Source: a virus (Duplodnaviria > Heunggongvirae > Uroviricota > Caudoviricetes). Taken from it: DNA of 18,536 nucleotides. Numbering within the stretch: the stretch's first letter is position 1; the number at the start of each line of letters is the position of its first letter. The notes under the pieces are model-generated. The model was given only the letters and a program-made list of their open reading frames with translations. It had not been told where the DNA came from and did no database searches. Positions 16,237 through 16,678 of this stretch are shown here, piece by piece. The translations under genes were made by a program, and so were the position numbers. The stretch is taken from positions 1-18,536 of the IMG/VR virus record IMGVR_UViG_2744054582_000011, one strand, 5' to 3'.

Positions 16237-16678
16237 AATAGCATCTTGCATCCGTATGCTGTTTATACGGATGCGTCATCATGTCAAAAATACTTTTCCA
16301 GTCATCAAGCCCTATTGACCATTTAATACTATTTATATCGCCTGATTTAGAAATTATCGTTTCACGAAGCGCCTTAGCTAGTTCCATGCGCTCTTGAACG
16401 GTCATACCAACGCATTCATATTTAATGCGCAAAAAAGAGTCATAAAATAAAGATTTCAAATTCAGCCGTAGAATTTCTTCATCACCATCTGAACTAATAA
16501 AAACAAGTTCATCATTATCCAAAATGATATTTTGTTTTCTCAATTCATCGGCTGATTTATATTCTTTCGTACTATTAGCAAACTCACTATACGTAATAGT
16601 TAGGCTGTTAGATGGTGATGCATCTTCAAGGTTTCCTCTGATGATAGTCACCGATGTTTTATTTAAATCTTGCCTCAT
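16214..16678 (-). CDS. Hypothetical 154-aa acidic protein, first gene after cox; AT-rich insertion
   Basis: ATG at 16676-16678 with GGAGGAGCC immediately upstream, 10 nt after the cox stop. Markedly AT-rich. No counterpart in the P2 cox-orf78-B arrangement as I recall it. Confidence 0.6.
   Translation of the reverse strand: MRQDLNKTSVTIIRGNLEDASPSNSLTITYSEFANSTKEYKSADELRKQNIILDNDELVFISSDGDEEILRLNLKSLFYDSFLRIKYECVGMTVQERMELAKALRETIISKSGDINSIKWSIGLDDWKSIFDMMTHPYKQHTDARCYFKNDLYQ
16248..16274. other. Perfect 10-bp stem-loop (GCATCCGTAT / loop GCTGTTT / ATACGGATGC)
   Basis: Exact inverted repeat read from the sequence, 12 nt after the 64-aa ORF stop and inside the 3' end of the 154-aa ORF. No T-tract follows on the + strand. 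Confidence 0.6.

Follow-up and report, generated by a model that had tools for sequence, protein, structure and literature searches.

A conserved stem-loop at the junction of a convergent two-gene cassette in a P2-like prophage, a candidate protective 3' end of the small-gene mRNA

The window, that is, the whole stretch of 18,536 nt of viral DNA analysed here, is a P2-like prophage that is integrated beside pflA in near-identical E. coli genomes. Its plus strand encodes the C repressor and the integrase, and its minus strand carries the early (Pe) operon, in which cox is followed by a gene for a 154-aa protein, orf78, a B-like gene, several small genes and replication gene A. A cassette of ~750 bp (15942-16687) occupies the interval between cox and orf78. 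It comprises the 154-aa gene (termed the big gene), a convergent gene for a 64-aa protein (termed the small gene) with a conserved module upstream of it, and a hairpin at the point where the two genes meet. The features of this region are as follows:

15771-15941, minus strand: homologue of orf78, 56 aa, phrog_273; marks the left border of the cassette; replication genes B and A come next on the minus strand
15942-16041, plus strand: conserved upstream module of the small gene, read as its promoter and 5' UTR
16042-16236, plus strand: 64-aa gene (small gene); hydrophilic product, hypothetical protein in RefSeq
16214-16678, minus strand: 154-aa gene (big gene), co-directional with the Pe operon and directly after cox
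16248-16274, plus strand: stem-loop GCATCCGTAT-gctgttt-ATACGGATGC, the proposed 3'-end-defining, protective hairpin of the 64-aa gene mRNA
16275-16555, plus strand: antisense stretch past the hairpin with more C than G, a candidate Rho-utilisation region
16688-17044, minus strand: cox, first gene of the Pe operon and right border of the cassette; Cox family DNA-binding protein in RefSeq, Pfam Phage_Cox

In canonical, cassette-free P2-like prophages cox abuts orf78, and the 154-aa/64-aa pair is therefore a ~750-bp insertion at a variable site. The same variable site can be seen at the loci L002, L003, L004, L050 and L052, besides the window itself (15942-16687). The 64-aa ORF, which is preceded by the Shine-Dalgarno sequence GAGG (16032-16035), overlaps the 154-aa ORF by 23 nt, in agreement with an earlier note on this DNA that had placed the hairpin at the meeting point of convergent, overlapping ORFs. 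Outside the cassette, the longest ORF of the C repressor in the window starts at 17097 (17097-17447); RefSeq mostly takes a later start, and this ORF is annotated with 99 aa in some relatives and with 116 aa in others.

We assessed the distribution of the cassettes among 5426 complete E. coli genomes. Some cassette is present at the cox-orf78 site in ~60 of these genomes (~1%), and the cassette of the window, with its hairpin, was found in four of them (plus four distant ones), as one copy per genome. At least three unrelated cassette types use the site, namely the window family, the L003 type (198 aa + 68 aa) and the L002/L050 type (62 aa + 58 aa), the last of which is also present in a plaque-forming Yersinia phage. 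In every cassette type, one gene is co-directional with Pe and a convergent small gene stands behind the same upstream module, and none of the encoded proteins could be placed in a known family or matched to PADLOC. No member of the 154-aa family was found among the isolated phages of the phage collection, and a search of the literature for the cox-orf78 site returned no description of it.

Word-indexed searches with single proteins returned near-identical clusters only, and the distant relatives were recovered by an exhaustive HMMER search together with a profile search, which yielded 19 clusters of the big protein. Two HMMER matches, P0005 (a low-complexity repeat) and P0007, were dropped as spurious or marginal. 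Scans of genome contigs and metagenomes added near-identical copies or one locus of the 139-aa type only. The DNA of 14 diverged loci was then compared, and all 14 displayed the same order, with cox followed by the big gene, the convergent small gene, orf78 and B. The big proteins of the relatives are 32-44% identical to that of the window (44% in L039, the closest of them, and 32-37% in the 139-aa group), and the small-gene homologues, of 62-64 aa, are clearly homologous and hold the same convergent position in every member of the family. These 14 loci sit in phages with different cox, C and int genes, and the fixed layout across such phages indicates that the two genes are a real co-inherited pair.

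Rearranged cassettes were also observed. Domain shuffling between cassette types is visible at L046 (1501-2151), L048 (754-1413) and L003 (2051-2647): in proteins of 216-219 aa, the N-terminal domain is that of the window family and the C-terminal domain that of the 198-aa protein of the L003 type, and these fusions accompany an L003-type small gene. In L005 (Logan SRR31184557), which is 3% diverged from the window, an A-to-G change at window position 16216 removes the big-gene stop codon; the big protein thereby grows to 157 aa, and its gene reaches further into the small gene. In L049 (1895-3123; E. coli 2013C-4830), an IS3-family element lies between the upstream module and an L003-type small gene and thus parts this gene from its presumed promoter.

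Neither of the two cassette proteins had a match in Pfam, PHROG, NCBIfam or the PDB sequences, and comparison with the PADLOC defence models gave no family for either protein at E up to 1. For the 154-aa protein, AlphaFold gave a model too poor to use (mean pLDDT of 50.6). Its least confident part, residues 137-154 with a pLDDT of ~34, is the poorly conserved C-terminal tail that carries the hairpin, and the low predicted confidence of this tail would fit a weakly constrained peptide that can accommodate a structure at the nucleotide level.

The upstream module of the small gene is common to all three cassette types and to all phage lineages, and it is present in ~60 of the 5426 E. coli genomes. 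It contains an extended -10-like sequence, TGgTAAGAT (15994-16002), which reads TGgTA(A/G)GAT across the cassette types, a palindrome, CCATGTCCGGCACATGG, at 15972-15988, and an 8-bp inverted repeat (15990-15997 / 16023-16030), and it has a good Shine-Dalgarno sequence. A consensus promoter scan of the module, in which no -35 element was seen, called no promoter. We read the module as promoter and 5' UTR for the small gene; it could also serve as operator or attenuator before orf78. An alternative stem, GCCGG (15960-15964) with CCGGC (15978-15982), is present in the module and co-varies to GCCGGG/CCCGGC in relatives. An attenuator before orf78 built from the alternative hairpins of the module was rejected, as the fold energies were no different from those of shuffles.

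The perfect 10-bp inverted repeat that the earlier note had reported at the junction was recovered by a repeat search. Its two 10-nt arms, 16248-16257 (GCATCCGTAT) and 16265-16274 (ATACGGATGC), are 100% complementary and are separated by a spacer of 7 nt. The stem begins 11 nt past the stop codon of the 64-aa ORF and 10 codons ahead of the stop codon of the 154-aa ORF; read on the minus strand, the same bases encode residues 135-144 (THPYKQHTDA) of the 154-aa protein. The folding of both strands, which the note had proposed as a check, was computed: the 27-mer RNA reaches -14.8 kcal/mol on the plus strand (11 pairs, loop of 5) and -13.6 kcal/mol on the minus strand, with Z-scores against dinucleotide shuffles of -5.3 and -6.0, respectively, and with none of 200 shuffles equally stable. 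After the stem, the plus strand continues with GUCAUCAUGU (also given as GUCAUCAU), without a U-tract, and the minus strand with AAGAUGCUAUUUUAAAAA (also given as AAGAUGCU), without an adjoining U-tract. The hairpin is flanked by AGCATCTT and GTCATCAT, and the nearest A/T runs lie at least 8 nt off the stem and are unconserved in relatives. Rfam has no family for the hairpin, and the sub-threshold matches to SNORD37, sR30 and RNA-OUT were noise.

The repeat alone is only mildly surprising, because a shuffled window contains on average 0.16 perfect stems of 10 bp or more with loops of 3-10 nt, and one or more such stems turn up in 11% of the shuffles. Two such stems were observed in the window, at 16248-16274 and at 13889-13913. 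What makes the hairpin at the junction more than a chance repeat is its position, its conservation and its covariation among relatives. The second hairpin, GCACCGGTAA-ggcgt-TTACCGGTGC on the minus strand, falls within the 5'-terminal part of replication gene A, over the codons of approximately residues 18-26 (TGKAFTGA).

Among 13 near-identical loci the junction hairpin is invariant, which is uninformative because these loci diverge by at most 3%. The diverged relatives carry a hairpin at the same site with different stem sequences. The stem has 10 bp in the window and 14 bp in L039, which shares the 5' arm of the window, and the 139-aa group has a 10-pair helix with a 17-nt loop (ATGGTGCGGC ... 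GCCGCACCAT), the sequence of which is quite unlike that of the window and which occupies the same place in the gene. One or two pairs are broken in each of L032 and L043.

Covariation was assessed in an ungapped alignment of 11 sequences, and the search for compensatory stem changes in homologous insertions, as the earlier note had proposed, was positive. The 139-aa group shows three compensatory pairs (U-A to C-G, G-C to A-U and G-C to U-A), each of which consists of one synonymous change and one amino-acid change in the other codon; a V/A replacement on the 5' arm goes with a silent change in an Ala codon on the 3' arm, and a silent change in a Val codon goes with an A/V replacement. These events are few and come from related sequences. 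The share of paired cells is 91.8% on the small-gene strand versus 85.5% on the big-gene strand, and the observed pairing was reached by 0-1 of 500 shuffles, with slid controls at 15-59%. An independent run of RNAalifold returned the same helix, at -16.6 kcal/mol on the small-gene strand versus -5.8 kcal/mol on the other strand. We also performed synonymous recoding with the protein kept (1000 recodings), and in all 11 members the region was more stable than the recodings would predict on one strand or both.

The fusions L046 and L048 provide a displaced copy of the site. Their big gene is ~75 codons longer, so that the site lies ~230 nt from the small gene. With a similar peptide, the stem at this site has decayed, with 6 of 10 pairs in L048 and the 3' arm gone from L046. 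Both loci have a new GC hairpin with a GUUUUCA tail at 12 nt past the small-gene stop. The compensatory changes, the recoding tests and the decay of the displaced stem together show that the stem is kept by selection, and they exclude chance.

The position of the hairpin follows the small gene. In two cassette types, represented by 14 loci, the hairpin of highest stability past the small-gene stop starts 10-16 nt from it. Relative to the big-gene stop, the hairpin lies anywhere between 11 and 28 nt upstream, and the fusions have this stop within the hairpin itself. The hairpins of L003, L046/L048 and L002/L050 have a U-rich tail, with 4-6 U in 8 nt, on the small-gene strand. The L002/L050 type has no hairpin at 10-16 nt and carries one at 57 nt, the tail of which has 5-6 U in 8 nt. 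On the opposite strand of L003, the nearest U-run is ~18 nt past the stem and is not terminator-like. From the folds and the U counts, we read the hairpins of these sister cassettes as probable terminators of their small genes. A simple terminator scan calls none of them, because their loops exceed 8 nt.

In the window family, the tail on the plus strand is of another kind. The window and 10 relatives have 1-3 U in the 8 nt after the stem and no U-tract. Past the hairpin, the ORF list of the plus strand shows no long ORF, and this stretch is richer in C than in G: the first 80 nt contain 17 C versus 7 G (20-27 C versus 6-11 G in the relatives), and the C/G ratio remains at 1.2-2.4 in 80-nt windows to 16555. 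In E. coli, Rho-dependent 3' ends are formed by stable stem-loops without U-tracts, with an excess of C over G downstream; some of these stem-loops lie inside neighbouring coding regions, and they guard the RNA against PNPase and RNase II (Dar and Sorek, PMC6061677). The hairpin of the window resembles these protective stem-loops in the terminator-like size of its stem and loop, in having neither a U-tail nor an upstream A-tract, in its place at the end of the coding part, shortly past the stop codon, and in the excess of C over G in the untranslated RNA downstream. It also sits in the coding region of a neighbour, as they can. It differs from them in that the neighbour is a convergent, overlapping gene, and in that the covariation which maintains it sets synonymous against non-synonymous changes.

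The explanation that we favour, and to which we give about an even chance of being correct, is that the hairpin is a 3'-end-defining, exonuclease-protective stem-loop of the 64-aa gene mRNA that permits read-through from Pe. The 64-aa gene would be transcribed from its own upstream module towards cox, and the hairpin would act as plus-strand RNA. With no U-tract behind the stem, RNA polymerase is unlikely to halt there efficiently. Transcription would thus continue into the untranslated, C-rich and G-poor antisense RNA, where Rho may terminate it, and 3'-to-5' exonucleases would trim the transcript back to the stem, at which the mRNA end would be fixed and protected just past the stop codon. 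Antisense transcription into cox and the Pe/Pc switch would thereby be limited. On the opposite strand, the same bases would serve as ordinary translated codons of the 154-aa gene, and transcription from Pe would read through to orf78, B and A. A role on the plus strand is favoured because a 3' end on the minus strand would deprive the 154-aa message of its stop codon, because termination on that strand would cut off B and A, because the missing U-tract together with the downstream excess of C over G matches Rho-dependent 3' ends, and because the spacing of the hairpin follows the small-gene stop and not the big-gene stop. Among the roles that the earlier note had offered (processing, stability, or attenuation that couples the two overlapping genes), a role in stability is thus favoured, yet for the mRNA of the 64-aa gene alone, and nothing supports a coupling or attenuation of both genes.

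The assignment to one strand is not clean, as both the fold of L039 and the recoding test of the window are stronger on the minus strand. It was therefore considered whether the hairpin works in the Pe transcript, as a pause, attenuation or processing signal near the end of the 154-aa gene; such a signal would set the ratio of cox and the 154-aa gene to the replication genes, or the stability of the upstream segment. L039 is at its strongest here, with 14 pairs including a U.G pair, which is an imperfect A.C pair on the small-gene strand, and with a fold of -22 kcal/mol on the big-gene strand versus -17 kcal/mol on the small-gene strand and 0 of 1000 recodings on the former. The recoding test of the window gave 2/1000 on the minus strand and 20/1000 on the plus strand, three mismatches in the family are G.U on the minus strand, and the minus-strand 27-mer folds stably as well (-13.6 kcal/mol). 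When the recoding means are subtracted, the energy gain is similar on both strands. We nonetheless regard a role in the Pe transcript as unlikely. The stem is part of a translated ORF, where ribosomes would open it; no relative has a U-tract after the stem on this strand; the U-rich tails of the sister cassettes stand on the other strand only; and the RNAalifold consensus is only -5.8 kcal/mol. In addition, the spacing to the big-gene stop is unconserved, with the stop of the fusions inside the hairpin. A 3' end at this place would yield a non-stop mRNA, and termination would shut off B and A, which are essential. The same three points, a stem within a translated ORF, a non-stop message and the loss of B and A, speak against the coupling or attenuation element of the earlier note.

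It is also improbable that the hairpin is a genuine intrinsic terminator, one-way or bidirectional, that insulates the convergent units without a canonical U-tract. The place is typical, past a stop codon at a convergent meeting point, and the stem is stable, contains GC pairs and has 10-11 bp with a short loop. Hairpins of the L003 type, with their U-rich tails, occupy the same slot in sister cassettes, as GC-containing hairpins 10-16 nt past the stop at a convergent junction. Intrinsic terminators, however, have ~5 or more U within the 8 nt directly after the stem; the plus strand has 1-3 U in 8 nt throughout the family, and neither strand of the window or of its 10 family relatives has the U-tract. 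A consensus terminator scan made no call at the hairpin of the window. As the earlier note had stated from the lack of a T-tract on the plus strand, the hairpin is no classical intrinsic terminator, because the U-tract is missing. The minus-strand TATTTT to which the note had drawn attention is present, as a UAUUUU that begins about 7-8 nt past the stem, but it is unconserved in relatives, and termination there would be harmful. Bidirectional intrinsic terminators show A-tract/U-tract symmetry around the hairpin, and neither an A-tract upstream nor a U-tract downstream was found here.

The convergence and overlap of the two genes, and a stable hairpin on both strands, would also allow a loop-loop kiss of the two hairpins that nucleates sense-antisense pairing and cutting when Pe fires, as a toggle between lysogeny and lysis. 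Of the two genes, the small one is oriented like C and int, and the big one is part of the lytic operon. We consider such a toggle very doubtful: the small-gene mRNA is matched over its whole length by the Pe transcript, which makes a special nucleation site unnecessary, and the loops are conserved neither in sequence nor in length (5-21 nt).

A DNA-level element, either a palindromic protein site or a hairpin or cruciform for recombination, cassette exchange or replication, appears highly unlikely. The repeat is perfect, cassettes and domains are exchanged at the hotspot, and homology in the fusion proteins breaks off within a few codons of the site. Against this, the sequence of the arms, their register and the spacer (5-21 nt) differ between relatives, unlike in an operator, no partner protein visibly co-varies, the element is single-copy in each genome, and the tolerance of G.U-type pairs points to RNA. 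Finally, a functionless chance repeat that arose from the HPY...HTD codons would fit the ~11% of shuffled windows with a perfect hairpin of at least 10 bp and an invariance confined to near-identical copies, but it is scarcely credible in view of the different-sequence hairpins at the same site in relatives of 32-44% identity, the compensatory changes, the positive recoding tests and the decay of the stem when displaced from the junction.

Other known classes of element were compared with the locus. An RNase III site of the lambda sib type has a stem of ~20 bp or more, and the stem has 10-11 bp here and at most 14 bp in the relatives. REP/BIME-type palindromes occur as many dispersed copies, and this hairpin occurs once per genome. 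Convergent units with 3' overlap are known in lambda oop/cII and in par of pAD1, the latter a type I toxin-antitoxin system, and the cassette resembles both in its 3' overlap, in its location on a mobile element and in a hairpin at the meeting point. In contrast to oop/cII and par, both cassette partners encode conserved hydrophilic proteins, the 64-aa product included, and there is neither a short hydrophobic toxin nor a non-coding antisense RNA, so that the cassette does not have the features of a type I toxin-antitoxin system. No evidence for RNA-RNA regulation in the cassette was obtained.

At the level of gene organization, the cassette can be compared with the accessory-gene (moron) loci of P2, for instance old/tin and Z/fun. 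Such loci are likewise variable, horizontally exchanged insertions at a fixed junction in a P2-like genome that is conserved elsewhere, with a promoter-like module of their own. The cassette differs from them in its location at cox-orf78 inside the early operon, in its fixed convergent pair and in its lack of a PADLOC match.

A further proposition, which we rate as improbable, is that the convergent two-gene cassettes at the cox-orf78 hotspot, itself not described before, form a class of their own so far overlooked and act as a switch coupled to lysogeny and lysis, with the hairpin as its RNA hinge. If this were true, the small protein would be made in the lysogen from the shared promoter module and the larger one only when Pe fires, and the stem at the junction would set which of the two opposing transcripts survives; the pair might be, for example, an exclusion or abortive-infection factor and its lytic-phase antidote.

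As a class, the hairpin is ordinary, being a stem-loop at the end of an mRNA, and the unusual part is the uncharacterised gene cassette. The hairpin is a clear example of an RNA structure that is under selection inside the coding sequence of an opposing gene. It also offers, for an accessory gene of a prophage, a candidate 3' end of the Rho type that lacks U, where sister cassettes use a hairpin plus U in the same region. Beyond this, the hairpin draws attention to the variable cassette site between cox and orf78 and to the cassette proteins there, none of which belongs to a known family.
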